DNA from: an uncultured Poribacteria bacterium | GTDB lineage: Bacteria; Poribacteria; WGA-4E; WGA-3G | Reading direction: 5' to 3' | Assembly (NCBI GenBank): GCA_958296135.2 | Contig: CATQHZ020000001.1 | Location: 2,304,001-2,368,000, forward strand | DNA length: 64,000 nucleotides | Part shown: positions 27,553-63,123 of the stretch, in pieces | Layout: the number at the start of each line of letters is the position of its first letter | Numbering within the stretch: the stretch's first letter is position 1 | The notes under the pieces: generated by a model | Seen by the model: only the letters and a program-made list of their open reading frames with translations | Databases searched by the model: none | What the model was told of the DNA's origin: nothing | Translations under genes and position numbers: made by a program

Positions 27553-27771
27553 ATTGATTAATTCCACTTTTGCGTCCATTTTAACACATTTCGCGCGTTT
27601 TCTTCAAGAAAATCGCGCATTCGGCATTGATTAATTCCACCTTTGCGTCCATTTTAACACATTTCGCGCGTTTTCTTCAAGAAAATCGCGCATTCGGCAT
27701 TGATTAATTCCACCTTTGCGTCCATTTTAGCACATTTCGCGCGTTTTCTTCAAGAAAATCGCGCATTCGGC
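27553..27771 (-). repeat. 3 x 73-bp tandem repeat, each containing a promoter-like element
   Basis: Units start at 27553, 27626, 27699; minus strand TTGAAG-18-TAAAAT with TGn extended -10. Confidence 0.9.
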
Positions 27772-29197: not shown

Positions 29198-29833
29198 TCA
29201 CTCCCCGTGAACGGAACTGGGCTGGGCTGGTGCATCTCTTTCCGGGATGATTTGTGCTTTGAGGCTTTCGTTCTCGGCGCGCAAGGCCGCATTTTCCTCT
29301 TGCTGCGCCGCCACCTGTTCCTGCAACGCCGTAACTTTTTCGCGGTTCTTCTGCTGATCGCCCAACCACTTCGCGAACCCCCAACCGAGCAGGGCTAGCA
29401 GTGCTGTCACTAGCAACCCGGCAACCCAGGTCAGCGTATTGGCCTGCCGTGACACTTGCTCGCGCAGATCGGTTATCCGAGCACCCTGGCCGCGAACCTC
29501 GCCCTTCAGTTCACTGACCTCCAGTTTCAAGGCGAAGAGCTCCTTCTTCACGACAGCGAATTCCTCCTTCACAGCGGCGACTTCCTCTTTCACGGCGGCG
29601 ACTTCCACCTTCACGGCGGCGACTTCCACCTTCACGGCGGTGAATTCCACCTTCACAGCAGCGACTTCCTTCTTCACGGAGGCGAGTTCCTCTGTCACTT
29701 TGAGGAGTTCCGCGGTTATCCGCGCTTCGGACGCGGTGACGATTCGCTCGATCGCTTGCAGTTCTTCATCACCGAAAGCCGGCGATGCAACAAGCACCAC
29801 TACAAATACAAACAAACACACAACGGTGTTCAT
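29198..29833 (-). CDS. Membrane-anchored coiled-coil protein paralogue (7-residue repeats)
   Basis: VAAVKVE/VAAVKEE heptads (21-bp repeats), TM WVAGLLVTALLALLGW, C-terminus nearly identical to 28024..28605. Confidence 0.75.
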   Translation of the reverse strand: MNTVVCLFVFVVVLVASPAFGDEELQAIERIVTASEARITAELLKVTEELASVKKEVAAVKVEFTAVKVEVAAVKVEVAAVKEEVAAVKEEFAVVKKELFALKLEVSELKGEVRGQGARITDLREQVSRQANTLTWVAGLLVTALLALLGWGFAKWLGDQQKNREKVTALQEQVAAQQEENAALRAENESLKAQIIPERDAPAQPSSVHGE

Positions 29834-36634: not shown

Positions 36635-37445
36635 CCGTAGCGCGGGGGCCGTCACGCCGAAACTTTGTCATCTCTGCCGCCTCGCTGCAGAGATGTCCAC
36701 TGTCCCCCGCGAGCGCGCCTCGATAGATCGATGCATGGCGAGGCACAGGACCTCGCCCTACGGTATCAGACAACCCCCCGGTGCCCGTAGCGCGGGGGCC
36801 TGTCCCCCGCGATCGTCCTTCGTCCCGTAGTGGCCTGTCCGCCGCGAACGTTTCTCGCTGGACCGATGCATGGCGAGGCACAGGACCGCGAACGCTTCTC
36901 GATGGACCGATGCATGGCGAGGCACAGGACCGCGCCCTACGGTATCAGACAACCCCCCGGTGCCCGTAGCGCGGGGGCCTGTCCCCCGCGATCGTTGGAT
37001 AGACCAAGAACGTTCTTGGCCCGTAGCGCGGGGGCCGTCACGCCGAAACGTTGTCATCTCTGCCGCCTCGCTGCAGAGATGTCCACTGTCCCCCGCGATC
37101 GTCCTTCGTCCCGTAGTGGCCTGTCCGCCGCGAACGTTTCTCGATAGACCGATGCAAGGCGAGGGACAGGCCCTCGCCCTACGGTGAAGTGGGATGTTCT
37201 TGTCCCCCGCGAACGCTTCCCGGTAACTCGATGCATGGCGAGGGGGAACCCTCGGCGATTCGCGCTCGCCGGGCCCTCGCCCTACGGTGAAGAAGGACGT
37301 TCGATAGCTCGATGCATGGCGAGGGGGAACCCTCGGCGATTCGCGCTCGCCGGGCCCTCGCCCTACGGTGAAGAAGGACGTTCGATAGATCGATACATGG
37401 CGAGGGACAGGCCCTCGCCCTACGGTGAAAAAGGACGTTCTTCGA
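36635..37445. repeat. Large composite REP cluster (BIME-like)
   Basis: About ten GTAG REP copies in both orientations, with higher-order direct repeats (36730-36814 vs 36910-36995; 81-bp units at 37227 and 37308). Confidence 0.9.
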
Positions 37446-37446
37446 T

Positions 37447-40400
37447 CTACGGGAAAAGCGACGGCAATTCCCCAACAAGCCGCACCGTCTCCACACTCAC
37501 ACGCATCACCTGCCCAAGCAACCGAACGATATATTGCGCATCCTCAACACGATTCGGATCCGCAACAATACCACTCCCATTCAGATCCGACTTCACCCGA
37601 TACTGATCGAGGACCCACTCTAATGCCGAACGCCGCCCCAACTGATAATCAAACACGGCCGGCGGAATATCCACTAGCGTCAACGATTCGTTGTAGCGCA
37701 CCTCGGTCTTGTCTTTTGACAACTTCATCTGTGCCACGCGCCAATTCAGCGGCACGCCGGGTGTCTCAACGACGTTTGGCAGCACATCAAGTGCTTCATA
37801 ATTGACATGCAAGTCTGCCAGTTGCCGCCCGATGTTCACGAACCCCCAGAACTCCGGGGCGAACGGGAGATGCGGTAAATCGTGCTTCAAGTTCACCTGA
37901 TACCGCTCGCGATAGTCATGATGATGCAGCACCGCGTAGTTGTAGTGGAAGATGTCCCACTTGGAGATGGTATCGTCGGCGTAGTGTGCGCGGAATTGTG
38001 CCACTGCCCAGTCGGTGATGTTTTCTCGGCGGTTGGTCCCGTCCTCATCGTAAATATAGAAAGGGAAGCACTGCGAATCACCCGTCAAATGGAGATCTGG
38101 AATCACGTTAGCCATCAGCGCGTGGAAAGATTGCGTTGAGCCTGGGGCCTTGACACAGATAACCCGATTTTCCTGTTCGGTTTCCTGTGTCGGGAAGATG
38201 GCGGGCATCACATTGACACGTTGGTTCATCAACCTGTCAAAATAGAGGTGCGATTTGGTAAACGGACGATAGAGAGATGTGCGAATCTTCTCGGCAGAGA
38301 ACGTCACCAACGTTCCTTTTTTCGCTGCAGTCTTCAGCCGGTCTGTCCACTTAATCTGGGTGCGCTCCTGACTCACAAAATCGGTGACGCTGATATCCCT
38401 GTCCATCCGCCGTTCCCATCTGCCAACTTCAGCGTTGTAGAACTCCATCATCCGAGACAGATTCTCTGTCAAGGCGCGTGCGTCGAAATTGTAAACCCAT
38501 GCATCACGGTTCGTCACCACGCCGAGACTATAAGTTTTAAAGAGCGTGCCTTCAACATCGCCTTTCGCTGCCTTTGCTTTCTTGGTGCCCATCGGGAGGA
38601 ACGTGTCAAAGTCGGGTTCGAGCCCCTCCGTGAGCCACAGCTGGCGCGCATTTGGCTGCAATTCGCGCCACGTCACATTCCCGATATGTTCGCGGGCTGC
38701 GAGAAACTGGAAGGTGCGTTCCTTCGACAAAGCGGCGGCTTCATCGGTATAGCGGATGCGCGCGATGCCCGCGCGTTGCTGCTTCGTTTTCACAAAGAAG
38801 TTGATGCTCACGCCGACTTGAATGCCGAACACGTTGGAATCTCCCTTTTGTCCCTTGCGGATGTTCCCACCCAGGTCGACGATGTGGAGCCAGTCGAATT
38901 CCTCGGCGAGACACTGCCGCATCCCATCGAACATCGCCGCATCCAGGAAACTGTTGTTCGTGATAAACGCGATGATGCCTTCTTCCCCGATTTTATCGGA
39001 TGCCCAGCGGAGAGATTTCACATACGGATCGTAGAGTTTGTTTTTCAGTTGCGCTGTCGAGGCGGCGGCATACGTGGCGCGGACGCGCGCATCAACTGCT
39101 TCGTGGGGCCGATTCTTGTTGTTATCATTCTCGTTCGCCTGACTCGCGTTATATGGCGGATTGCCGATGACGACAAACATCGGTGTGTCCTTCTGCTCTT
39201 TGACGCGCAGCGTGTTTTCCTGCGTGAGAAAGGCAAACTGCCCTGTCTGATGCGGCGTGTCCATGAGCCCGAAGGTATCAAACGTGTCAACGAAACAGAT
39301 ATGCTTAAAAGGTTCGTATCGCCCCATCTTTTCAAAATAGGCGTGTTCGATGTTCATCGTGGCGATGTAGTAGGGGAGCAGCATCACCTCGTTGCAATGC
39401 AATTCGCCGCGATACTTTTTGTCCAGGGCGATGCCGGGGATTTCCTGCATGAGGCGCACGATGAAGTTGCCGGTGCCGACAAACGGATCGATGATGTGAA
39501 CGCCTGTATCGGCAAGCGATTTGCCGAAATGGGTTTTCAAGAGATGTTGGACGCTGTTCACCATGAAATCGACGATGGGTTGCGGGGTGTAGACGATGCC
39601 GTGCCGGTCTGCATCCTTGACAGAGAAGCCCTGAAAAAAGCGTTGATACAGCGTGTTGAGGAAGTCCTGTTTCTGGGAGAACTCTGTCAAGGTGCTGGCG
39701 GTTTTCTCAATGGCCGAGTAAAAGGGATTCAGTTCGTTGAAAAAGTGCGTTCTATCAAAGGCGTGCCGAGTGAGCACGTCAATGACGTTCTCTATCTCGC
39801 GGGCGATAATATTGCGGCGGGTGAAGTCGCGGTTATTGAATACGGTGGCGAAGATGCGTTCCGTCATGAGGTGTTGCGCGAGCATCCGTTCGACTTCGGT
39901 TTCGGCGAGGTTGGGGTTGATTGCGTTTCTGCATTGGCGATGGAAGTTCGCGAACGCCTCGCGGAAGTCGGGGGTGTTCTGGCGTTCGGTTTGGATGAGT
40001 GCTTCGAGTCTCGCGCCGAGCTCGGGGATGGTATCTTGGAAAGTGTCCACGGCTGCGTCCCAGTCGGCGAGGTTTTCTTCGGTGTAAGCGAAGAAGCTCT
40101 CGAGCAGCTGGACAAGATTGCGCGGTTCAGTGATGTCCAAGTCCAGCACGAGCGAACCGTTTTGGTAGAGAATGGCGCGGTGCGGGGTTTGGAAGATGAT
40201 ATTTTTGGCGGGATAGCCGGTTGTCAACTTCTGTTGCACTTCGGCGGGGAGCTCATCGAGCAGGTCCTTCGCTTCCCAATGCCCGAAGACTAAGCCGAAG
40301 TCGGTGACGATTTCGCCATCAATGCGAATGTGGTTTCCGTTAGGGGTGGTGCGCGTCTGCTCGCAGATAAGCGTGAGCGTGCGTTGTCCGCAATAGTGTT

Positions 40401-40521
40401 GCAGCAAGTTCTGGAAGGCGACGCGGACGGCTCCTTCGTGTTGTGCGCCGAGGTGTGTATACTGTCCGAGTTCGGCGTAGTAGGTTTTGATGGGTTTGTG
40501 CGTGGGTTTGATGCTGAGCAT
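37447..40521 (-). CDS. Type ISP-like restriction-modification protein (nuclease + N6-adenine MTase + ISP-type C-terminal specificity domain, no helicase)
   Basis: N-terminal IDG...WEAKD; GIVYTP, IDPFVGTGNF, VIGNPPY; GVVTNRDAWVY, YRPFTK, DIFHYNYAVLH, SALEWVLDQY. Confidence 0.85.
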   Translation of the reverse strand: MLSIKPTHKPIKTYYAELGQYTHLGAQHEGAVRVAFQNLLQHYCGQRTLTLICEQTRTTPNGNHIRIDGEIVTDFGLVFGHWEAKDLLDELPAEVQQKLTTGYPAKNIIFQTPHRAILYQNGSLVLDLDITEPRNLVQLLESFFAYTEENLADWDAAVDTFQDTIPELGARLEALIQTERQNTPDFREAFANFHRQCRNAINPNLAETEVERMLAQHLMTERIFATVFNNRDFTRRNIIAREIENVIDVLTRHAFDRTHFFNELNPFYSAIEKTASTLTEFSQKQDFLNTLYQRFFQGFSVKDADRHGIVYTPQPIVDFMVNSVQHLLKTHFGKSLADTGVHIIDPFVGTGNFIVRLMQEIPGIALDKKYRGELHCNEVMLLPYYIATMNIEHAYFEKMGRYEPFKHICFVDTFDTFGLMDTPHQTGQFAFLTQENTLRVKEQKDTPMFVVIGNPPYNASQANENDNNKNRPHEAVDARVRATYAAASTAQLKNKLYDPYVKSLRWASDKIGEEGIIAFITNNSFLDAAMFDGMRQCLAEEFDWLHIVDLGGNIRKGQKGDSNVFGIQVGVSINFFVKTKQQRAGIARIRYTDEAAALSKERTFQFLAAREHIGNVTWRELQPNARQLWLTEGLEPDFDTFLPMGTKKAKAAKGDVEGTLFKTYSLGVVTNRDAWVYNFDARALTENLSRMMEFYNAEVGRWERRMDRDISVTDFVSQERTQIKWTDRLKTAAKKGTLVTFSAEKIRTSLYRPFTKSHLYFDRLMNQRVNVMPAIFPTQETEQENRVICVKAPGSTQSFHALMANVIPDLHLTGDSQCFPFYIYDEDGTNRRENITDWAVAQFRAHYADDTISKWDIFHYNYAVLHHHDYRERYQVNLKHDLPHLPFAPEFWGFVNIGRQLADLHVNYEALDVLPNVVETPGVPLNWRVAQMKLSKDKTEVRYNESLTLVDIPPAVFDYQLGRRSALEWVLDQYRVKSDLNGSGIVADPNRVEDAQYIVRLLGQVMRVSVETVRLVGELPSLFP

Positions 40522-48928: not shown

Positions 48929-49960
48929 TCAAAAGTCCAGAGAAACCCGCAATTCCTCGGCGCAAGCCCGAATCTGCCGATAGAGGGTATCCGGTATCTC
49001 GATGCCGTTTTCCCACCTCTGTGCACGGGAGCGCGCCTCAAAGTCACCCGGTACCAAGACTTCGTCAAACCCTGGGGCAGGCGGTGTCGCTTTGACGACA
49101 TCTAAAAACGCGCGCACGCCGCTCTGATATTCAGCCAGCGGCGTGAAGGCATTGACATCGATAACCTGCATAGTGAGCCCCCCTATCTGTCCGGCGTTGG
49201 GATTAAACGTTCCGCCTAATCCACCGAGCAGGGCGACGAAAAGGGAGAGCGCGTAGCCTTTGTGTTTGCCAAAGGCGAGCAGGTGTCCGCCATCCTTGTA
49301 TTCGGCAACTTTGACGGTGGGATTGCCGTGTTTGTCAACAACGCACCCCGGGGGCAGCGCGCGATTTTCGCTGTCCGCGACGTAGGTTTTGCCGTTTGCA
49401 ATCATGCTCGTTGCGAAATCCAAGAGGAACGGGCTGTCATCGCCAGTAGGAACCCCGATAGCGATAGGGTTGGTACCGAGTGCCCCTTCTGCGCCGCCGA
49501 AGGGGAGAATGCGTCCGCCGCCCTTCGCGCCACCACCGACGGTGATAATACCGATACACCCCGCAGCGGCGGCTTCTTCGGCGTATTCACCAACCCGGCC
49601 GATATGTCCCGTCCGAGTGAGCGTTGCGAAACTGTTCCGCGTCTGCTTCGCTTTCTCAATAACGCGCCGAATTGTCCAGCGCGCGGTATAGTGTCCGAAG
49701 CCGCCCTGGCCATCAACGTGCAGCGTATTCTCGGTTTCCCGTAGCACCTTTGGTTCCGCCGCTGGTACAATGCCGCCGCTCTTAATGCCTTCCAGGTAGG
49801 CAGGGATGCGTAGCACGCCGTGGGAATCGTGCCCGGCGAGGTTCGCCTTGATAAGAATCTCGGCGACATCCTCAGCAATGTGCTGCGGCGTGCCTGCCGC
49901 GATGAATACATTCCGAGTGAATGCCTGTAGGTGCGTGGCTTCCACTATGTGCCTTTTCAC
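48929..49960 (-). CDS. Ldh_2 (malate/L-lactate dehydrogenase type 2) family oxidoreductase
   Basis: GHDSHG, DG..GFG, HIGR, GTNPI, DFATS, HKGYAL. Confidence 0.9.
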   Translation of the reverse strand: MKRHIVEATHLQAFTRNVFIAAGTPQHIAEDVAEILIKANLAGHDSHGVLRIPAYLEGIKSGGIVPAAEPKVLRETENTLHVDGQGGFGHYTARWTIRRVIEKAKQTRNSFATLTRTGHIGRVGEYAEEAAAAGCIGIITVGGGAKGGGRILPFGGAEGALGTNPIAIGVPTGDDSPFLLDFATSMIANGKTYVADSENRALPPGCVVDKHGNPTVKVAEYKDGGHLLAFGKHKGYALSLFVALLGGLGGTFNPNAGQIGGLTMQVIDVNAFTPLAEYQSGVRAFLDVVKATPPAPGFDEVLVPGDFEARSRAQRWENGIEIPDTLYRQIRACAEELRVSLDF

Positions 49961-50002
49961 GATGGGTGTCTCCTTCGCGCTGCCAAAGCGTGCCTACTGG
50001 CA

Positions 50003-51079
50003 TTATTGGGGGCGGTAGCGTGCCTTGTCTGCCGCTTCAACTGTATCTTCACCGAGCGATAGGCTGAATCTTGCCGCGCATTCCTGCAACTGCGTGTGGA
50101 TAGTGTCCGGTATCTCAATGCCGCTGACGAGTCTTTGCACGCGGGTGCGATGTTCAAAATCACCAGGGACTAACACTTCGTCAAACCCAGAAGCAGGCGG
50201 TGTCGCCTTGATGCCGTCTAAAAACGCGCGCACCCCTTTCTGATACGCGGCCAACGGCGTAAAGGCAGCCGGACGAATTACCTGCATGAAAATGCCGTTC
50301 ATGCGTCCCGTGTCAACGTCAAATGTTCCCGCCAATCCCCCGAGCAAGCAGGTAAACATGGAGAGCGCGTAACCTTTATGTTTACCGAAAGCCAGCAGTG
50401 CGCCGCCATCATAGAAATCGGCAGGTTTGACACTCGGCGCGCCGTGCTTGTCTAAAATACAGCCCTCCGGCAGCTCGGTGCCTTTGCTCCGCGCCACCTG
50501 AATTTTCCCCTCGGCTACGACACTAGTGGCGTAGTCAACGATAAACGGCGATGCGTCCCCTGTCGGCACACCGATGGCGATAGGGTTCGTGCTAAATCGC
50601 CCTTTCGCACCGCCGTAAGGCACCGTCGGCCCCGCGCCCTCGCCGCCCATGCCGACGGTGATGAGCCCGATGCAGCCCGCCGCGGCGGCTTGCTCAGCAT
50701 ATTCTCCCAAACGCCCGATATGCCCGGTGTTGGAGATGCTGACGCAACAGGAGACATCCGCTTGTGCCTTTTCAATCGCCCGTCTCATGCTCCAGCGCGA
50801 CGTATAGTGTCCAAAACCGCCGCCGCCATCAAGGCGTAACGTATTCGCAGTCTCAGCGAGGATGGCAGGCTCGGCAGCCGGGTTGAGGTAACCGCCATCG
50901 ATGCCTCTCAGATAGGCAGGGACGCGGAGCACGCCGTGGGAATCGTGCCCGGCGAGGTTCGCCTTGACGAGAATCTCGGCGACATCCTCGGCGATGTGCC
51001 GGGACGCACCGGCGGCAACAAAGATATTTCTCGCAATCGCGTGCAGGCGCGGGGCCTGAAATAGATGGTTTTTTTCCAT
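50003..51079 (-). CDS. Ldh_2 family oxidoreductase, paralogue
   Basis: Same motifs; AAAAGGA SD before ATG 51079. Confidence 0.9.
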   Translation of the reverse strand: MEKNHLFQAPRLHAIARNIFVAAGASRHIAEDVAEILVKANLAGHDSHGVLRVPAYLRGIDGGYLNPAAEPAILAETANTLRLDGGGGFGHYTSRWSMRRAIEKAQADVSCCVSISNTGHIGRLGEYAEQAAAAGCIGLITVGMGGEGAGPTVPYGGAKGRFSTNPIAIGVPTGDASPFIVDYATSVVAEGKIQVARSKGTELPEGCILDKHGAPSVKPADFYDGGALLAFGKHKGYALSMFTCLLGGLAGTFDVDTGRMNGIFMQVIRPAAFTPLAAYQKGVRAFLDGIKATPPASGFDEVLVPGDFEHRTRVQRLVSGIEIPDTIHTQLQECAARFSLSLGEDTVEAADKARYRPQ

Positions 51080-51198
51080 AAGGGTATCGTTCCTTTTGTG
51101 TCCAAGTCTTTCTTCGCGGTGAGATGCGGGGTAGCGCAACTCGCGTGACATTATGACAGATTTCCCGATTTTTGTCAATCAGATTCCGCGAACATGAT

Positions 51199-51804
51199 TT
51201 ATGCCTGCTGGTTTACCATACTCGCAAGGATGCCGAGAATCTTGTCACACTGTGCGATCTGGTAGGGTGCCATATCCATAGAGAGGGTTTGCGCCTCCAA
51301 TTTCAGGAACCGCCACAGGATACCTGTCGTGGTGGCACCATAAACGCGCGGGATGTCATTCCCTTTTTGGGCATTAAAGCGCTGCGCCGCTAGCATCTCT
51401 GCAACACATTGCCCGAGGCCGCTTTCAAGTTTATCATTCTTTGCCTCAACAAGAATGATAACAGGGGCCTCAACAAACGCTTGCCAGGGTGACAAACTTA
51501 TCAAAAAATCGCACACACCGACTAAGCCGCTCTCGTCATCCACATTGAAGTCAATCCCCGAAAACAGACTGATACGACGCTCAAAGTGCTCCCGGAGCTC
51601 AAACAGAACCTCGGAGACAATCAGCTCCGACTTCGCTTTCTCCGTGCCGATAGCCGTCGCTAACGGGACTTTTTGCTCCAACGCCGTGGAAAGATACGCG
51701 CTCGGCTCCACCGGTTCAACGTCAGCAAAGAGCCCCGCGGCGTTAGTCCTTTCCAACTGAAACTCTTGCAGCACCGCTTGTAAAGTAAAGTTGCTATACG
51801 CCAT
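51199..51804 (-). CDS. PD-(D/E)XK-like hypothetical protein, array copy H
   Basis: 201 aa; TEKAKSE, GVCDF, VEAK, GQCVAEM, YGATT.G..W. Confidence 0.8.
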   Translation of the reverse strand: MAYSNFTLQAVLQEFQLERTNAAGLFADVEPVEPSAYLSTALEQKVPLATAIGTEKAKSELIVSEVLFELREHFERRISLFSGIDFNVDDESGLVGVCDFLISLSPWQAFVEAPVIILVEAKNDKLESGLGQCVAEMLAAQRFNAQKGNDIPRVYGATTTGILWRFLKLEAQTLSMDMAPYQIAQCDKILGILASMVNQQA

Positions 51805-51843
51805 GATGCAAGAACCTCCGCTGCCCGGCATCGCGCTGACAGT

Positions 51844-52449
51844 TCACGCCTGTTGGTTTACCATGCTTGCGAGGATGCCGAGGATCTTGTCGCAACGCTC
51901 AATGTGGTAGGCACCCATATCCATGTGGAGCCTCTTCCCCTCCAATTTCAGGAACCGCCACTCGGTGCCGGTGGTGGTGGCACCATAAACGCGCGGAATA
52001 TCGTTCCCTTTTTCCGCATTAAAGCGTTGCGCCGCAACCATCTCCGCAACACACTGCCCAAGCCCATGTTTCACATCCGCATTTTTGGCTTCCACGAGGA
52101 CAATGACAGGAGCCTCCACCTGTTCTTGCAATGCCGACAAACTGATAAGGAAATCACAGACACCGACGAGACCGGTTTGCTCATCTACGTTGAAGTCTAT
52201 CCCTGAAAAAAGACTGACACGGCCCTCAAAGTGCTCGCGGAGCTCAACCAGAATATCGGTAATAATCATCTCGGACTTGGCTTTCTCGGTCCCGATGGCA
52301 ATCGCTAATGGAGCCTTTTTCGCCAAGCCTGTGGTGAGATACTCACTCGGCTCCACCGGCTCTGCTTGAGCAAAAAGCCCGATAGACTGAACCGTTTCAA
52401 GCGCAAATGCCTTCCGTACAGAATCGAAGGTGAAATTGCTATACGCCAT
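51844..52449 (-). CDS. PD-(D/E)XK-like hypothetical protein, array copy G
   Basis: 201-aa paralogue. Confidence 0.8.
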   Translation of the reverse strand: MAYSNFTFDSVRKAFALETVQSIGLFAQAEPVEPSEYLTTGLAKKAPLAIAIGTEKAKSEMIITDILVELREHFEGRVSLFSGIDFNVDEQTGLVGVCDFLISLSALQEQVEAPVIVLVEAKNADVKHGLGQCVAEMVAAQRFNAEKGNDIPRVYGATTTGTEWRFLKLEGKRLHMDMGAYHIERCDKILGILASMVNQQA

Positions 52450-52455
52450 GATATG

Positions 52456-52695
52456 CTAACCTCCCGTGTCGTGATTTACGCTGCTCGCCAAGATGAGGAT
52501 ATCCGCGACAATCAACTCGGACTTCGCCTTCTCCGTGCCGATAGCCTTTGCTAACGGTGCCTTTTTTGACAAGGCTTTAGTAAGATATGCGCTCGGCACC
52601 ACCGGTTCGCTGTCAGCAAAAATGCTGGCACCATCAATTTCTTTTAACTGGAACGCTTCCGCCACCCTATCAAGCGTAAAACTGCTATACGGCAT
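52456..52695 (-). pseudogene. Internally deleted array copy F
   Basis: N-terminal ~67 aa (…TEKAKSELIVADIL) joined directly to C-terminal-like ILASSVN; catalytic region missing. Confidence 0.8.
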
Positions 52696-52734
52696 AACGA
52701 AAGAACCTCCGCTGCCCGGCATCGCACCAACAAT

Positions 52735-53340
52735 TCACGCCTGCTGTGTCACCATGCTCGCAAGGATGCCCAGAATCTTGTCGCACTGCGCAATTTGGTA
52801 GGCAGTTAGATCAATGGAGAGTGTCTGGCCCGCCAATTTCAGGAACAGCCAATCTAACCCCGACGTGGTGGCACCATAGACGCACGGAATGTCATTACCG
52901 GCTTCCGCATTAAAACGCTGCGCCGCCACCATCTCCGCAACACACTGCCCAAGCCCATCCGTCAGACTGTCCTTTTTGGCCTCCACGAGGACGATAACCG
53001 GTGCCTTCACAGACATTCGGTTTGGGGACAAACTTACTAAAAAATCGCACACCCCGGTCAACTCTTTATCGGCATCAACGTTGAAATCAACACCCGAGAA
53101 AAGACTGATACGCCCGTCAAAATTCTCGCAGAGTTCAACCAAAATATCGGCAACGATGAGTTCCGATTTCGCCTTCTCGGTGTTCATAGCGATGGCTAAC
53201 GGTGCCTTTTTCGCCAAACCGGTGGTAAGATATCCGCTCGGTATCACCGGCTCTGCTTCAGAAAAGAGTCCGGTAGTCCAGCGCGTCTCTAACTGAAAGG
53301 CTTCTTCCACCGTATCTACGGTAAAGTCGCTATACGCCAT
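52735..53340 (-). CDS. PD-(D/E)XK-like hypothetical protein, array copy E
   Basis: 201-aa paralogue. Confidence 0.8.
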   Translation of the reverse strand: MAYSDFTVDTVEEAFQLETRWTTGLFSEAEPVIPSGYLTTGLAKKAPLAIAMNTEKAKSELIVADILVELCENFDGRISLFSGVDFNVDADKELTGVCDFLVSLSPNRMSVKAPVIVLVEAKKDSLTDGLGQCVAEMVAAQRFNAEAGNDIPCVYGATTSGLDWLFLKLAGQTLSIDLTAYQIAQCDKILGILASMVTQQA

Positions 53341-53376
53341 GAGGAGAAACCTCCTGTGCTCGGCAGCACCGGCAGT

Positions 53377-53982
53377 TCACACCTGCTGTGTCACCATGCT
53401 CGCAAGGATACCCAGAATTCTGTCGCAACGTTCGATTTGGTAGACTTTCAAGTCAACAGAGAGCGTCTGTTCCGCCAACTTGAAGAACAGCCACTCGGTG
53501 CCAGACGTGGTGGCACCATAGACGCACGGAATGTCATTACCGGCTTCCGCATTAAAGCGCTGCGCCGCAACCATCTCCGCAACACACTGCCCGACTCCCT
53601 GCTTCACATCCGCATTCTTCGCCTCAACCAGCGCGATAACAGGAGCCTCCAAATCAAATGTCTCGGGCGACAAACTCACCAAAAAATCACACACACCTGT
53701 CAAGCCGTTGGAGGCATCTACGTTGAAGTCGATACCCGAAAAAAGACTCACGCGGTTATCAAAGTGTAAGCACAACTCTACGAGAATGTCCGAGACAATC
53801 AGTTCCGATTTCGCTTTCTCGGTACCCATCGCCAGCGCAAACGGCAGATTCCGCTCCAAGGAAGCCGTGAGATGAGCACTCGGCTCCACCGGCGCAATCT
53901 CCGAAAAAAGCCCGAACCGCCGAACCGTCTCCAAGTGAAAGGTGCGCGACACCTTGCTTAAGGTAAAACTGCTATACGCCAT
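53377..53982 (-). CDS. PD-(D/E)XK-like hypothetical protein, array copy D
   Basis: 201-aa paralogue, AGGAGG SD. Confidence 0.8.
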   Translation of the reverse strand: MAYSSFTLSKVSRTFHLETVRRFGLFSEIAPVEPSAHLTASLERNLPFALAMGTEKAKSELIVSDILVELCLHFDNRVSLFSGIDFNVDASNGLTGVCDFLVSLSPETFDLEAPVIALVEAKNADVKQGVGQCVAEMVAAQRFNAEAGNDIPCVYGATTSGTEWLFFKLAEQTLSVDLKVYQIERCDRILGILASMVTQQV

Positions 53983-54021
53983 AATGAGAAATCCTCCTAT
54001 CTTCGGCAACGCACCGGCAGC

Positions 54022-54627
54022 TCACGCCTCTTGCGACACCATGCTGGCGAGGATACCCAGAATTTTGTCGCACTGCGAAAGTGGGTAGACTGTCAGGTCA
54101 ATGGAGAGTGTCTGGCCCGCCAATTTCAGGAACAGCCACTCGGTGCCAGACGTGGTGGCACCATAGACACATGGGATGTCATTACCGGCTTCCGCATTAA
54201 AGCGCTGCGCCGCAACCATCTCCGCAACACACTGCCCGACTCCCTGCTTTACATCCGCATTCTTCGCCTCAACCAGCGCGATAACAGGGGCCTCCAAATC
54301 AAAGCGCTGGGGTGACAGACTCACCAAAAAATCACACACACCCGTCAAACCGTTGGAGGCATCTACGTTGAAGTCAATACCCGAAAAAAGACTCACGCGG
54401 TCCGCAAAGTGTAAACACAGCTCAATGAGAACTGGGGAGACAATCAGTTCCGATTTCGCCTTCTCCGTACCCATCGTCAGCGCAAACGGCAGATTCCGCT
54501 TCAGGACCGTGGTGAGCGGCGCGCTCGGCTCCACCGGCGCAATCTCCGAAAAGAGACCGAACTTCCAAACCGTCTCCAGATGAAAGGCGCGCGACACTTT
54601 GCTTAAGGTAAAACTGCTATACGCCAT
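54022..54627 (-). CDS. PD-(D/E)XK-like hypothetical protein, array copy C
   Basis: 201-aa paralogue, AGGAGG SD. Confidence 0.8.
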   Translation of the reverse strand: MAYSSFTLSKVSRAFHLETVWKFGLFSEIAPVEPSAPLTTVLKRNLPFALTMGTEKAKSELIVSPVLIELCLHFADRVSLFSGIDFNVDASNGLTGVCDFLVSLSPQRFDLEAPVIALVEAKNADVKQGVGQCVAEMVAAQRFNAEAGNDIPCVYGATTSGTEWLFLKLAGQTLSIDLTVYPLSQCDKILGILASMVSQEA

Positions 54628-54666
54628 GATGAGAAATCCTCCTATCTTTGGCAACGCACCGGCAGC

Positions 54667-55272
54667 TCACGCCTCTTGCGACACCATACTCGCAAGGATA
54701 CCCAGAATTTTGTCGCACTGCAAGAGTGGGTAGACTGTCAGATCTATGGAGAGTGTCTGGCTCGCCAATTTCAGAAACAGCCACTCGGTGCCAGACGTGG
54801 TGGCACCATAGACACACGGGATGTCATTGCCGGCTTCCGCATTAAAGCGCTGCGCGGCAACCATCTCCGCAACACACTGCCCAAGCCCATCTGTCAGACT
54901 GTCCCTTTTAGCTTCAACGAGGATGATAGCCGGGGCCTCTAAATCAAAGGCCTGGGGTGACAGACTCACCAAAAAATCACACACACCCGTCAAACCGTTG
55001 GAGGCATCCACATTGAAATCTATCCCCGAAAAAAGACTCACGCGGTCCGCAAAGTGCAAGCAGAGCTCCACCAAAACCGGCGCAACAATCAATTCCGATT
55101 TCGCCTTCTCCGTACCCATCGTCAGCGCAAACGGCAGATGCCGCTTCAAGCAGGCCGTGAGATGAGCACTCGGCTCCACCGGCGCAATCTCCGAAAAAAG
55201 CCCGAACCGCCGAACCGTCTCCAAGTGAAAGGCGCGCGACACCTTGCTTAAGGTAAAACTGCTATACGCCAT
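54667..55272 (-). CDS. PD-(D/E)XK-like hypothetical protein, array copy B
   Basis: 201-aa paralogue, AGGAGG SD. Confidence 0.8.
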   Translation of the reverse strand: MAYSSFTLSKVSRAFHLETVRRFGLFSEIAPVEPSAHLTACLKRHLPFALTMGTEKAKSELIVAPVLVELCLHFADRVSLFSGIDFNVDASNGLTGVCDFLVSLSPQAFDLEAPAIILVEAKRDSLTDGLGQCVAEMVAAQRFNAEAGNDIPCVYGATTSGTEWLFLKLASQTLSIDLTVYPLLQCDKILGILASMVSQEA

Positions 55273-55312
55273 GATGAGAAATCCTCCTATCTTTGGCAAC
55301 GCCCCCGGCAAC

Positions 55313-55918
55313 TCACGCCTCTTGCGACACCATACTCGCAAGGATACCCAGAATCTTGTCGCACTGCGAGAGTTGGTAGGCCGTCATGTCTATGGAGAGT
55401 GTCTGGCCCGCCAATTTCAGGAACAGCCAATCTAACCCCGACGTGGTGGCACCATAGATGCACGGAATGTCATTGCCGGCTTCCGCATTAAAACGCTGCG
55501 CCGCAACCATCTCCGCAACACACTGCCCAAGCCCATCTATCAGACTATCCCTCTTTGCTTCGACGAGGATGATAGCCGGCGCCTCTAAATCAACGAGCTG
55601 GGGCGACAGACTCACCAAAAAATCGCACACACCCGTCAAACCGTTGCTGGCATCTACGTTGAAGTCAATACCCGAAAAAAGACTCACGCGGTGCTCAAAG
55701 CGTAAACACAACTCAATGAGAACTTGGGCGACAATCAACTCCGATTTCGCCTTCTCCGTACCCATCGTCAGCGCAAACGGCAGATTCCGCTCCAAGACCG
55801 TGGTGAGCGCTGCACTCGGCTCCACCGGCGCAATCTCCGAAAAAATACCGCGCTTCCAAACCGTCTCCAAGTGAAAGGCGCGCGACACTTTGCTTAAGGT
55901 AAAACTGCTATATGCCAT
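55313..55918 (-). CDS. PD-(D/E)XK-like hypothetical protein, array copy A (promoter-proximal)
   Basis: 201-aa paralogue, AGGAGG SD. Confidence 0.8.
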   Translation of the reverse strand: MAYSSFTLSKVSRAFHLETVWKRGIFSEIAPVEPSAALTTVLERNLPFALTMGTEKAKSELIVAQVLIELCLRFEHRVSLFSGIDFNVDASNGLTGVCDFLVSLSPQLVDLEAPAIILVEAKRDSLIDGLGQCVAEMVAAQRFNAEAGNDIPCIYGATTSGLDWLFLKLAGQTLSIDMTAYQLSQCDKILGILASMVSQEA

Positions 55919-55951
55919 GAGGAGAAACCCTCCTAACTATTATCTTTTTTT

Positions 55952-55980
55952 ATTATAACCGATTTCTCAGCAAAATGCAA
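55952..55980 (-). promoter_or_regulatory. sigma70-like promoter of the array
   Basis: TTGCAT-17-TATAAT on minus strand. Confidence 0.6.
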
Positions 55981-55992
55981 GCAAAATCGAAC

Positions 55993-58884
55993 CTACGATT
56001 TCTTCCCACCGTTGATGCTCGGCTCCCGACATAGCATCCGCCGCAACAGCGCAAGCCCCTCATGCACATCCGGACGCGCTGCCGCCGAAATGCTGAGAAC
56101 CTCCGATAACAACAGCCCATCCAACTCCCACCGATGTTCATCGCGTTTTTCCGCTATATCCATTTCATTGAATGGACGCAACTCTCGCCCCTTCAGCGCG
56201 TGGAAAATCCGTTCGGCACGAGCCAAGGCCGCATCCGATAATTGGCGGACATCTAGCGTCGGCATCGAATCAAACGCCGCACGACTCAACTTCCCGCGGC
56301 CCTGCTGTTGCTTACCACTGTGCAGCCAGTGGCAGAGCAAACCAAACGTCGAATTGCACCACAACGTCCACGCATACTCGTATCTCTCGTCCGAGAAATA
56401 TACGTTAGGAATCAAAGCGATGCCGAGAGATTTCTCTTCAGTGAACATCACCGCCAATGAATTCGCATTGAACCGCATCTCCAAATTATAGTGGACGCGG
56501 CTGTTCAGTTGCAAGATACGCTGCACCTTTTCCGCCATATTCGGACGCGGCATCGCGTGCGCATCAGGGGCAACTCGCATCGTTCGCTGCGAATCCGAAC
56601 GTACATGCCACAAAACAGGATACTGCGCCGTGTCAGGACACGCCTTCACAACGTCAAATGCCCCTCTGCCGCTGCCACCGTATATATCCTTGGGGCCCGT
56701 CCCAAGCGTCCCGATTTCGGATGCGGCACAAATTGGCAGGCGAATATCTGAAGTCTGCCGCGGCAGTCGCAGCACGCCGTTCGCGAGATGATACGCCGAT
56801 TGGACAGCAATCATGTCCTTGACACGCGAGACAGGCCAGGCACTATTATTTTCAGGTAAGCGCGCGGAGATGACATGTCCTAGCGTCTCATCGCCGACGT
56901 TGAGCGGCGCACCGCCGCCAAGCACATCTTCGTCAAGATGACGGCTCCCCTTCCGCAGATGAATCTGTCTCGCAATTTCCTGCGCCTCCAATTCGCCATC
57001 GGGACATCTGTCAAGACAGACGAACGTCGCGCTGCCAGTGTTCTGCCCCGCGCCTTTCGTTGCGACGACGAGACACTCCGCTATCCCCGTATCTGCTGAG
57101 AACGTGCACGCCTCAATGTCGGGATTCGCAATGCTGATGACAATCACATCGTGATATTCGTGCGCCCACATGCCGCGCACCTTATACCAACTATTTCCGG
57201 TGATAACCGTTAAGGGAAGCACAAACGCCATCTTGCCACCCCGCTTTAGCATTCTGTCGGCAAGATCGACGAAGGACGCGCCAAGTCCAGGGTTGTTACC
57301 AGAGAGCCGTCCTTTTTGGGCCCGCAGCGACGCGCGCATCGCTGCATCAACCTTCTTGTCGGCGAAGATATTCTTCGGCATGTTCGCATTCGGATCTGCG
57401 CTCCGAGTATACGGTGGATTTTGGATGACGATATCCATCTCGCCGTGACGAAACGCTTCCTGGAGAGCCGTCGTCTCCATGCTGTGCCCAGTCGTCATCT
57501 CCGTTGTCCCTAATAGGAGAGGCAGCGTGCCGCCCGGGTCGTTCAATAGATTCAGTGCACCGATGCCGTAGAGCCCATCTTCGCGCACAGTACCGTAGGA
57601 CATCGTATGGATACGCGTGGAGCCAATGCAGGTTTGCGGCTGGGTACTGGCGATGATAGCCGCCGTGAGATGCACCGCGTTCGGCAAAATGTCACACCCA
57701 ACGAGGTTCTGCTCTAGCATCTGCTGATGGATGTCCGCTGCATCGCCGCCGGCTTGTTCATGCAACAGGCGGAGGCGTTGATAAACGCCGTTGAGGAGAG
57801 AACCCGTGCCGCAAGCAAAATCCGCAACCTTCGGAAGGGCATCCATCTCTCCAAGCGAAGGTAAAACCAACGCGCAAAGGAGCGCAGAAGATTCCGGGCG
57901 CGTATAGTTTGCCTTGATAATCTTCCGGTCGGCGATGAGTCTCTGGAAGACGATGCCGGCGAGCTCGTGCTCCTGCGCGAGCCCCATCAGCTCCAAATCG
58001 CGCGCCGTGTCACGAAGCACACTCAGCACCTTGCCCACCAGTTTATCGTCTGCACTGAGAATCCGGACGAGTTGATAGGCTACGTTGAAAATCGGCGCAT
58101 AGTTCACCTTTTGGATAGCGCGCCACGCTCTTAGCACCTCGTCGGAGTCAAGCTGCCCGTAAGCAGCGATGAGTTCGCTGAGCGACGGCACCTCTTCCAG
58201 AGCCGGCGTTCGCCCGAGGTAACTTTGGAAAACGAGCGCGTTGCTGATGATGAGCATCGCCAACTGGTTCGTCTGTTCACCCGGTTCCTGCACGAGGATA
58301 CCCCCGATTTTCTCACCGAGCCGCGGACGCTGTTGGAGAGCCCCATCAACGATAGCAGCAGCGCGCCGGATACCATGCTCCAGAATTTTGGCGGCCTGCT
58401 CTATCTTGGCAATCGGCATCGCACCGATGGTAATAGCCATCGCGATATCGGCGATGCTACCCGCCAGCCAACCCCTTTTTGGGAAGCGGCGCGGCTCGTC
58501 AACGTTGAGCAAAATATAGCGGAACGCTTCCTCTGCCTCAAGACTCGCGCGAATTGCGTCCCTCGGCATCGTCCTGAATGCATGCGGAATGCGAATTGCG
58601 ATGGCACTCGCAACCGGCTGCAGCGTCGTCTTGAGCGTTTTGCCGAGGTAATGCAGACGTGCCTGTTCTTCGCCAGCCTCGTTTGCCCCGCGTGCCGTGT
58701 CAATTTTCACCTCAATGGCGAGTGGATATCGTTCAGTTGTCCGAACAATTGCATCCGGTTTCCGGTCATTTTCGACGAAGGGTTGCGGTGCCTGCTCATC
58801 AATATCCCATTTTGAACGCATCGGCGTTAAAATGTCAAGGAACATGGTGGTGATGGTATCTTCGCTGCTGCGGTGTTGGTTCAT
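55993..58884 (-). CDS. Type IIG-like fused endonuclease / amino-DNA methyltransferase, 963 aa
   Basis: N-terminal KPDAIV...AIEVK; NYTRP, DFACGTGSLL (motif I), IQNPPY (motif IV), MAFVLP; upstream TTGACA-17-GATAAT. Confidence 0.8.
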   Translation of the reverse strand: MNQHRSSEDTITTMFLDILTPMRSKWDIDEQAPQPFVENDRKPDAIVRTTERYPLAIEVKIDTARGANEAGEEQARLHYLGKTLKTTLQPVASAIAIRIPHAFRTMPRDAIRASLEAEEAFRYILLNVDEPRRFPKRGWLAGSIADIAMAITIGAMPIAKIEQAAKILEHGIRRAAAIVDGALQQRPRLGEKIGGILVQEPGEQTNQLAMLIISNALVFQSYLGRTPALEEVPSLSELIAAYGQLDSDEVLRAWRAIQKVNYAPIFNVAYQLVRILSADDKLVGKVLSVLRDTARDLELMGLAQEHELAGIVFQRLIADRKIIKANYTRPESSALLCALVLPSLGEMDALPKVADFACGTGSLLNGVYQRLRLLHEQAGGDAADIHQQMLEQNLVGCDILPNAVHLTAAIIASTQPQTCIGSTRIHTMSYGTVREDGLYGIGALNLLNDPGGTLPLLLGTTEMTTGHSMETTALQEAFRHGEMDIVIQNPPYTRSADPNANMPKNIFADKKVDAAMRASLRAQKGRLSGNNPGLGASFVDLADRMLKRGGKMAFVLPLTVITGNSWYKVRGMWAHEYHDVIVISIANPDIEACTFSADTGIAECLVVATKGAGQNTGSATFVCLDRCPDGELEAQEIARQIHLRKGSRHLDEDVLGGGAPLNVGDETLGHVISARLPENNSAWPVSRVKDMIAVQSAYHLANGVLRLPRQTSDIRLPICAASEIGTLGTGPKDIYGGSGRGAFDVVKACPDTAQYPVLWHVRSDSQRTMRVAPDAHAMPRPNMAEKVQRILQLNSRVHYNLEMRFNANSLAVMFTEEKSLGIALIPNVYFSDERYEYAWTLWCNSTFGLLCHWLHSGKQQQGRGKLSRAAFDSMPTLDVRQLSDAALARAERIFHALKGRELRPFNEMDIAEKRDEHRWELDGLLLSEVLSISAAARPDVHEGLALLRRMLCREPSINGGKKS

Positions 58885-62900: not shown

Positions 62901-63123
62901 GCGAGGGACAGTGGACATCTCTGCAGCGAGGCGGCAGAGATGACAACGTTAAAGTAAGTAAGGTAGCGTGTTTACGCGGGGCGACACACGCACATTTTCT
63001 GTAGACGTGACCGTGTTTACGCGAGGCGACACACGCACATTTTCTGTAGACGTGACCGTGTTTACGCGGGGCGACACACGCACGTTTACTGTAGACGTGA
63101 CCGTAACGGCCCTCGCCCTACGG
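62901..63123. repeat. REP with loop insert containing a 3 x 45-bp tandem repeat
   Basis: Units at 62967, 63012, 63057 (cgtgtttacgcggggcgacacacgcacattttctgtagacgtgac) between REP arms. Confidence 0.85.

Follow-up and report, generated by a model that had tools for sequence, protein, structure and literature searches.

A tandem array of predicted PD-(D/E)XK nucleases in a Poribacteria genome is the largest cluster of a scattered gene family

Introduction

Cyanobacteria and symbionts commonly carry expanded families of stand-alone proteins with the PD-(D/E)XK restriction endonuclease (REase) fold, such as Uma2 and Rpn. Most of these lack a known function, while Rpn has proved to be anti-phage. 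PMC10327210 traces rpn arrays to tandem duplication and reports that RpnP2 acts against phages, and arrays of 11, 3 and 3 copies are described in PMC9403480. Here we analyse a 64,000-nucleotide stretch of the genome of an uncultured Poribacteria bacterium (the window; assembly GCA_958296135.2, contig CATQHZ020000001.1, positions 2,304,001 to 2,368,000), which carries a head-to-tail array of eight genes belonging to a third such family. A profile exists for this family but no name or function was found in the open literature, and about 45–50 matches are found per genome in one Poribacteria genus. Our preferred explanation, held with about equal measures of confidence and doubt, is that stand-alone conflict nucleases have expanded by birth and death in this lineage, much as Rpn and Uma2 have elsewhere, and that the array is their largest cluster.

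The family resembles Rpn/PD-(D/E)XK_2 (COG5464) in consisting of stand-alone PD-(D/E)XK genes of uneven copy number, with duplication-made tandem arrays and without terminal repeats (for Rpn as described in PMC10327210 and PMC9403480). It differs in that neither the window copies nor 123 diverse relatives have a Pfam match to Rpn/PDDEXK_2, and the array genes possess no variable repeat C-terminal tail; a conserved internal Shine-Dalgarno (SD) sequence with start codon also appears to be missing from their 3' part. Uma2/DUF820 (PF05685) proteins are also solo REase-fold proteins of about 200 residues, are expanded in the same genomes and are often adjacent to the family in cyanobacteria; however, the same window copies and relatives have no sequence match to PF05685, and the structural match reaches just Z 6–7.5. 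The one existing profile, PADLOC PDLC01472, describes a Cas-associated ancillary gene without function, and the window copies match it without having a CRISPR link; the 'PD-DExK' cluster 45 of PMC6546367 may be a different family. The array family behaves as the Rpn and Uma2 expansions do without being part of either, and in this genome it is a component of neither CRISPR nor restriction-modification (RM) systems.

Results and discussion

An eight-gene array, one of 21 family loci

The genome holds 46 family members at 21 loci (24 full-length genes, 11 members of a distant subfamily of 204–212 aa and 11 fragments), and the array is the largest cluster of this scattered family, not a special locus. 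A first-pass annotation, made from the sequence alone, had proposed a dedicated repertoire at this place, and the proposal is not supported on this count. In a genome-wide k-mer scan no tandem paralog array was larger, with seven long open reading frames (ORFs) here against at most four elsewhere.

The array lies on the minus strand and consists of seven intact 201-aa genes (606-bp ORFs A, B, C, D, E, G and H) and the internally deleted F, arranged head to tail with start-to-start periods of 646, 645, 645, 642, 645, 246 and 645 bp, the short one being across F. Six intergenic spacers (five of 39–40 bp, one of 36 bp) each contain GGAGG, and between F and G, where the gap is 6 bp, the SD sits within the tail of F. 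This anatomy is as first annotated, including all eight starts. We refer to the genome holding the window as G000 (main contig C1), to its two sister species as G001 and G002, and to a genome from another genus as G007. The bacterium is of the sponge-symbiont type, and named homologs belong to Candidatus Poribacteria. The features are:

55993-58884, minus strand: 963-aa Type IIG-like RM gene with an Eco57I methylase domain, upstream of the array
55952-55980, minus strand: promoter-like TTGCAT-17-TATAAT before copy A (from sequence and conservation in G001 and G002)
55313-55918, minus strand: copy A, 201 aa, full catalytic set (PDLC01472 E=6e-46)
54667-55272, minus strand: copy B, 201 aa, mosaic, 5' end 97–98% identical to D
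54022-54627, minus strand: copy C, 201 aa
53377-53982, minus strand: copy D, 201 aa, with identical tracts of 74 nt shared with C and 79 nt shared with B
52735-53340, minus strand: copy E, 201 aa, A/B-type converted 3' half and older-lineage 5' half (also in G002)
52456-52695, minus strand: copy F, 79 aa, in-frame loss of about codons 68–191 (without D99, E120 and K122)
51844-52449, minus strand: copy G, 201 aa, closest tree relative at a different locus in G001
51199-51804, minus strand: copy H, 201 aa, structure modelled at a predicted local distance difference test (pLDDT) of 97
51150-51178, minus strand: promoter-like TTGACA-17-CATAAT of the downstream Ldh_2 dehydrogenase gene, marking the array end

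Copy F is an internal deletion, since a short microhomology marks the point where codon ~67 runs on in frame into the C-terminal ILAS segment; its counterpart in G002 is intact (81% identity over the first 201 nt). All seven intact copies retain E55/E60, D99, E120-x-K122 and Q132 unchanged, which bears out the invariant E...D...ExK...Q set described initially. The 3' halves contain no SD with in-frame start that is common to the copies (candidates are found at codon 32 in A–D and at codons 176/178 in G only), and no hidden palindromes common to the copies are present in the variable parts.

The array is probably one transcript from the promoter-like site before A, judging from sequence features. 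This site has a perfect -10 but a weak -35 element (3/6 match) and is not among the matches of a consensus promoter scan; TTGCAT-17-TATACT stands at the equivalent place in both sister species, and one dispersed family copy is also preceded by a site resembling the copy A promoter.

The assembly appears sound: the copies differ by at least 12%, therefore the array is not a collapsed or duplicated assembly, and an artefact is also unlikely given the short-read contig cover and the independent array in G002. Short-read contigs cover 30 of 30 bins of the array region, 164 of the 168 pieces reaching 99% identity or more, and bridge the IIG/A, D/E, E/F/G and G/H/ldh junctions, while no listed piece bridges A/B, B/C or C/D; they derive from four runs, all of one sample and possibly the window's own source, and contig depth is uneven over copy B.

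Fold and family identity

The structure model (pLDDT 97, built from the 123-sequence alignment) has a predicted PD-(D/E)XK fold, with the Type IIG and Type I nuclease domains as the closest enzymes. In the structure search the top match was mL37 (Z 13.2, root-mean-square deviation (rmsd) 3.6, 191 of 201 residues aligned), followed by the BpuSI Type IIG nuclease domain (Z 13.0, rmsd 2.8, 142 aligned), mL65 (Z 12.5, rmsd 3.6, 186 aligned), DrdV (Z 11.3) and HsdR (Z 10.3), with all further rows at 8.3 or below; an earlier first model returned the same five top structures, and the top non-ribosomal matches are all REase folds. The affinity to HsdR N-terminal domains suggested at first is thus upheld by the model. 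The enzyme folds align over residues of about 33–201, and the extra 32-residue N-terminal arm of the array protein is covered only by mL37 and mL65, the sole structures to align with the whole chain. Compared with the Type IIG and Type I enzymes, the array protein is also solo, with no methylase, specificity or translocase domain, is not consistently RM-linked and has QxxxE/A instead of QxxxY, the latter being the RecB/HsdR motif. The likeness to mL37 and mL65 is structural and comes from a predicted model: identity is 8–10%, there is no sequence-level match, and both are larger rRNA binders. They have been described as repurposed endonucleases (PMC8998825).

The array proteins would be metal-dependent DNases. 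Among the 123 diverse relatives their catalytic residues are kept in 122 (D99), 119 (E120) and 117 (K122). PDLC01472 'PD_DExK' matches all four window copies tested (E about 1e-46 to 1e-49, profile positions 2–142) and all 123 relatives, so the family is not unassigned, although the profile is only that of a Cas-associated ancillary gene. Window copies have no match in Pfam or NCBIfam at E<=1, and a sequence search of the PDB gave nothing meaningful. A few relatives match HSDR_N_2, HSDR_N, PDDEXK_12 and MmeI_N, all weakly. The resemblance to Crinkler REases is a weak one, since it rests on weak matches to PDDEXK_12 (5 of 123 relatives) and Pandoravirus DUF5898 (template modelling (TM) score 0.56, E 0.019), which we take to be linked to these enzymes. 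The homodimer prediction score was 0.40 against a mark of 0.42. Searches of the open literature listed no description of this nuclease family or of such Poribacteria arrays, subscription journals and supplements being outside the scope of the search (CRISPR-ancillary tables among them may cover PD_DExK).

Distribution of the family

Family matches number 43 in G001, 50 in G002 and 0–25 in other genera of the bacterial family. Across the phylum 90 of 121 genomes match, including 79 of 81 in this bacterial family, with 1 to at least 29 matches each. The nuclease family as a whole comprises 5043 proteins at 90% clustering (2543 at 50%) and is commonest in Cyanobacteriota (Atlas listing and genome loci returned). 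Longer fusions are rare (6 among 8000 scored candidates); they carry AAA_35, LRR, DUF29, Uma2, one other domain or none, and no methylase was found in the six.

At the array site G002 has 13 units (12 intact, one with a stop), G001 has at least five intact copies broken by contig ends, and G007 has neither array nor IIG gene, its flanking genes being adjacent. The array is thus expandable, as the first-pass annotation held. Dispersed single copies are mostly inherited vertically: the three single-copy sites checked all have orthologs in the sister species (in five of six site-genome pairs), and the orthologous copies are 84–87% identical, like their flanks. In one case a single copy with its own promoter is cleanly present or absent between two genes (L120:4290-5006 versus L135:1495-1501, an indel in G001), and this indel ends at a short match between the start regions of the nuclease gene and of the downstream gene; by eye, downstream genes at other loci have no matching start region.

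Could the genes be selfish passengers that persist by addiction or self-promoted recombination without benefit to the host? Their many unrelated sites, the clean gene-plus-promoter indel ending at a start-region match, exchange between loci and the presence of relatives on 18 cyanobacterial plasmids would fit. However, the orthology of the three checked sites, the absence of terminal repeats and the equal consistency of the indel microhomology with deletion argue against it, as does the lack of phage relatives (none in IMG/VR contigs by two short patterns or in 50,697 phage records, and none convincing in BFVD), so that we consider this improbable.

More distant relatives also form arrays. Three tandem genes of 219–220 aa at G000:C1:4274934-4277233 (L146:935-3234, minus strand) are still more distant relatives (E about 1e-7 to profile A2, no Pfam match), two of them with identical C-terminal halves. 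Arrays of the 204–212-aa subfamily, with weak MmeI_N matches, are found at G000:C1:3060542-3063268 (four copies) and 4405059-4407080 (three copies, 9 kb from cas1). A hybrid ORF at a contig end in G001 (L016:141-767) joins a WD40-type, signal-peptide-like N-terminus to nuclease residues ~31–201, where misassembly is possible.

Duplication, deletion and gene conversion

The copies are held by purifying selection, with nonsynonymous-to-synonymous rate ratios (dN/dS, omega) of 0.14–0.32 in all 21 window pairs, 0.19 under model M0 for 24 orthologous-site copies and 0.06–0.25 in ortholog pairs. The first two of these results rule out neutral duplication, in agreement with the first-pass annotation. 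Here and below, tree and selection sets consisted of copies other than truncated, N-containing and distant-subfamily ones and the hybrid ORF just mentioned.

Recombination is evident within arrays: an incompatibility permutation test gave 0/1000 for the window array and 0/1000 for that of G002 (4/1000 at third positions), in contrast to 388/1000, or no recombination signal, for 17 dispersed copies. Copy E shows the mark of gene conversion, with 92–97% identity to A/B in its 3' half and about 72–85% identity to anything in its 5' half; B and D have their 5' ends in common. In a quick tree A–C cluster together, the nearest relatives of G and H are at other loci, and exchange between loci is seen. 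DNA identity is 82–88% within A–D and 68–76% for any pair with E, G or H.

The greater likeness of A–D had been read as growth at the leader end, and only the likeness itself holds up. Adjacent identities in the window form a step (0.88, 0.88, 0.88, 0.72, 0.73, 0.74) and not a gradient, and in the G002 array the promoter-proximal copy is E-like and the adjacent identities of 0.68–0.80 lack a gradient. Leader-end growth is therefore not supported. Leader-polarised arrays of the CRISPR or integron kind differ correspondingly: there is no age gradient here (13-unit G002 array), no integrase among the flanking genes, and the spacers are of 36–40 bp. Array evolution is ordinary birth-and-death by duplication, deletion and gene conversion, in line with what PMC10327210 and PMC9403480 describe for rpn arrays.

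Is there diversifying selection on top of this? Site models on a single tree were significant (M2a vs M1a p=0.001, M8 vs M8a p=0.004), but with four segment trees the signal was gone (p=1.0 and 0.59), and it was likewise missing for the seven window copies alone (p=1.0 and 0.18) and for 51 dispersed copies (p=1.0). These tests used custom codon-model code with F3x4 codon frequencies, fixed branch proportions and arbitrary 50-codon segments. Positive selection is thus not robust once recombination is allowed, and the fastest sites fit an omega of about 1, i.e. are relaxed. Most of the variation falls into a few segments, with old alleles of segment 123–128 (NADVK type and K/RDSL type) re-assorted between copies and species. 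Together with the strong mosaicism and the single-tree p-values, this would suit a specificity library, in which the catalytic scaffold is fixed while conversion reshuffles surface segments 19–24, 106–111, 123–128 and 179–184, giving each mosaic another sequence or trigger to recognise; apart from leader-end growth this is the idea of the first-pass annotation. The vanishing selection signal, the relaxed fastest sites, the lack of polarity in G002 and the bare nuclease domain with no target-recognition domain all speak against such a library, and we regard it as unlikely.

Neighbourhoods and co-varying genes

An RM or methylase gene adjoins 2 of the 21 loci (a third has one two genes away, by eye), and cas1 lies within 10 kb of one locus, of the distant subfamily. 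The array itself has no CRISPR linkage, cas1 being at C1:3646401 and C1:4395030, more than 1.2 Mb away. Among 39 non-Poribacteria loci, 11 have Uma2 directly next to the family gene (in five cases the site is probably orthologous and the same) and one has Csx3 adjacent. Of four copies inspected on cyanobacterial plasmids, three are embedded in defence loci, namely DISARM, a DUF1156/DUF499 operon and a CRISPR-cas locus. In three Nostocales loci (L084, L102 and L105) a family gene is directly upstream of an RNase III gene; in L084 and L102 this nuclease gene carries a Swt1-like HEPN domain fusion and lies downstream of Uma2. Some neighbour ORFs in the locus surveys are short and probably spurious.

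The genome also contains 28 Uma2 genes, with arrays of four among them. The IIG gene upstream of the array, for which the fit to curated RM models is poor throughout (PADLOC E 5e-10 at best), has 13 paralogs here, 16–18 in the sister species and 0–10 in other genera of the family. Across 19 related genomes, which as kin are not independent, nuclease copy number co-varies with Uma2 (rho 0.81) and with IIG genes (rho 0.74). The array proteins could be extra nuclease domains that act in trans and aid second-strand cleavage by the neighbouring Type IIG enzyme or by the many IIG and ISP enzymes of the genome. In favour of this, the IIG gene and the array share one site in three species and are both absent in G007, IIG nuclease domains rank first among the enzyme folds matched, and copy numbers co-vary. 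Set against this are the rarity of RM neighbours, the stronger Uma2 correlation, the predicted promoter of the array's own and the lack of similarity between the array protein and the N-terminal domain of the IIG neighbour (hhalign probability 0.4%); in our opinion such a helper role is very unlikely.

Recurrent loss of catalytic acids

In whole-locus surveys of six genomes D99 or E120 is replaced in 13 of 84 intact 201-aa copies, while K56, E60, K122 and Q132 are unchanged in 84 of 84 (two duplicate loci were omitted from this count). One natural dead variant, with D99G, lies at G000 C1:2465518. By parsimony on a 247-sequence tree, E120 changed 11 times, D99 four times and E55 three times, compared with eight changes in total at 11 other sites whose conservation among distant relatives is 96% or higher. 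From these sequences the losses appear mostly independent, with the rest of the protein conserved, which is a new feature of the family. In one ortholog trio two species carry D99G and the other E120A, and omega is 0.07–0.11. In score-selected sets, which are biased against altered copies, only 2/48, 2/115 and 2/40 copies are altered.

The losses fit either relief from a costly nuclease or a retained non-catalytic role. The latter would mean repurposing as nucleic-acid-binding or decoy proteins, with dead copies binding the substrate or damping the active ones, as mL37 and mL65 might illustrate. The fixed state of the remaining sites, the constrained trio and the full-length structural match to the two mitoribosomal proteins are in its favour. 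However, the catalytic set is kept in all seven intact array copies, few copies are altered in the score-picked sets, most losses are each confined to one species and may be the first step of decay, and acidic codons mutate more readily than those for Gly, Trp or Cys. We therefore judge repurposing to be rather improbable.

A possible expansion of conflict nucleases

How would the family work if it is an expansion of stand-alone conflict nucleases? Copies appear and disappear via tandem duplication, deletion and gene conversion, with occasional moves between loci, and each retained copy is held by purifying selection. The proteins would be metal-dependent DNases without a specificity domain or methylase of their own, serving as latent and somewhat costly conflict effectors of an anti-invader or abortive type. 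We propose that because the nucleases are costly, high-copy genomes show many truncations and repeated loss of a single catalytic acid. A role in conflict or defence is suggested by analogy, from the cyanobacterial neighbourhoods, the Rpn precedent and the enrichment of defence genes in sponge symbionts (PMC5649159).

Several observations weigh against this explanation. In Poribacteria the neighbours of the family loci are mostly housekeeping or unknown genes, not defence genes, and in G000 they are mostly unrelated. No conserved antitoxin or regulator was found, leaving dozens of nucleases without an evident restraint partner. The dispersed copies match core genes in stability and conservation (dN/dS of a BNR gene about 0.10), which is unusual for arms-race effectors. 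The acid-less copies of the ortholog trio are still under purifying selection, which fits a non-catalytic role equally well, and in the 123 relatives E, A, Q or T takes the place of the QxxxY tyrosine.

A more speculative possibility, to which we attach a low probability, combines several of these elements. The family would be a partner-free repertoire, in which recombination shuffles surface cassettes, leading to varied triggers or targets, while recurrently arising dead paralogs are kept as regulators; among present-day bacterial proteins it may also stand closest to the endonuclease ancestral to mL37 and mL65. If dead copies do regulate live ones, this would explain how dozens of nucleases can be borne by a cell that has no antitoxin genes for them, and the whole-length match offers a clue to where mL37 and mL65 came from. 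The family provides a natural test set of small proteins, with mosaic variants of one operon and naturally dead orthologs.

Other features of the window and genome

Downstream of the array, at window positions 48929-51178 (minus strand), two Ldh_2 paralogs of the malate/L-lactate dehydrogenase family stand in tandem, with 64% identity. G001 and G002 likewise have two copies and G007 and G017 have one, while in G004 the second copy is broken. A Type ISP RM gene of 1024 aa (Type_ISP_C, ISP_coupler), apparently without a helicase domain, lies at 37447-40521 (minus strand). Short tandem repeats are found at 27553-27771, 29541-29692, 37227-37406 and 62967-63104 (periods 73, 21, 81 and 45), and several tandem repeats of the window are made of palindromic intergenic elements that are common in the genome. 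Contig C2 of G000 (143,886 bp) has a GC content of 36.8%, against 54.4% for the main contig, and is possibly a plasmid, a phage or a bin contaminant.

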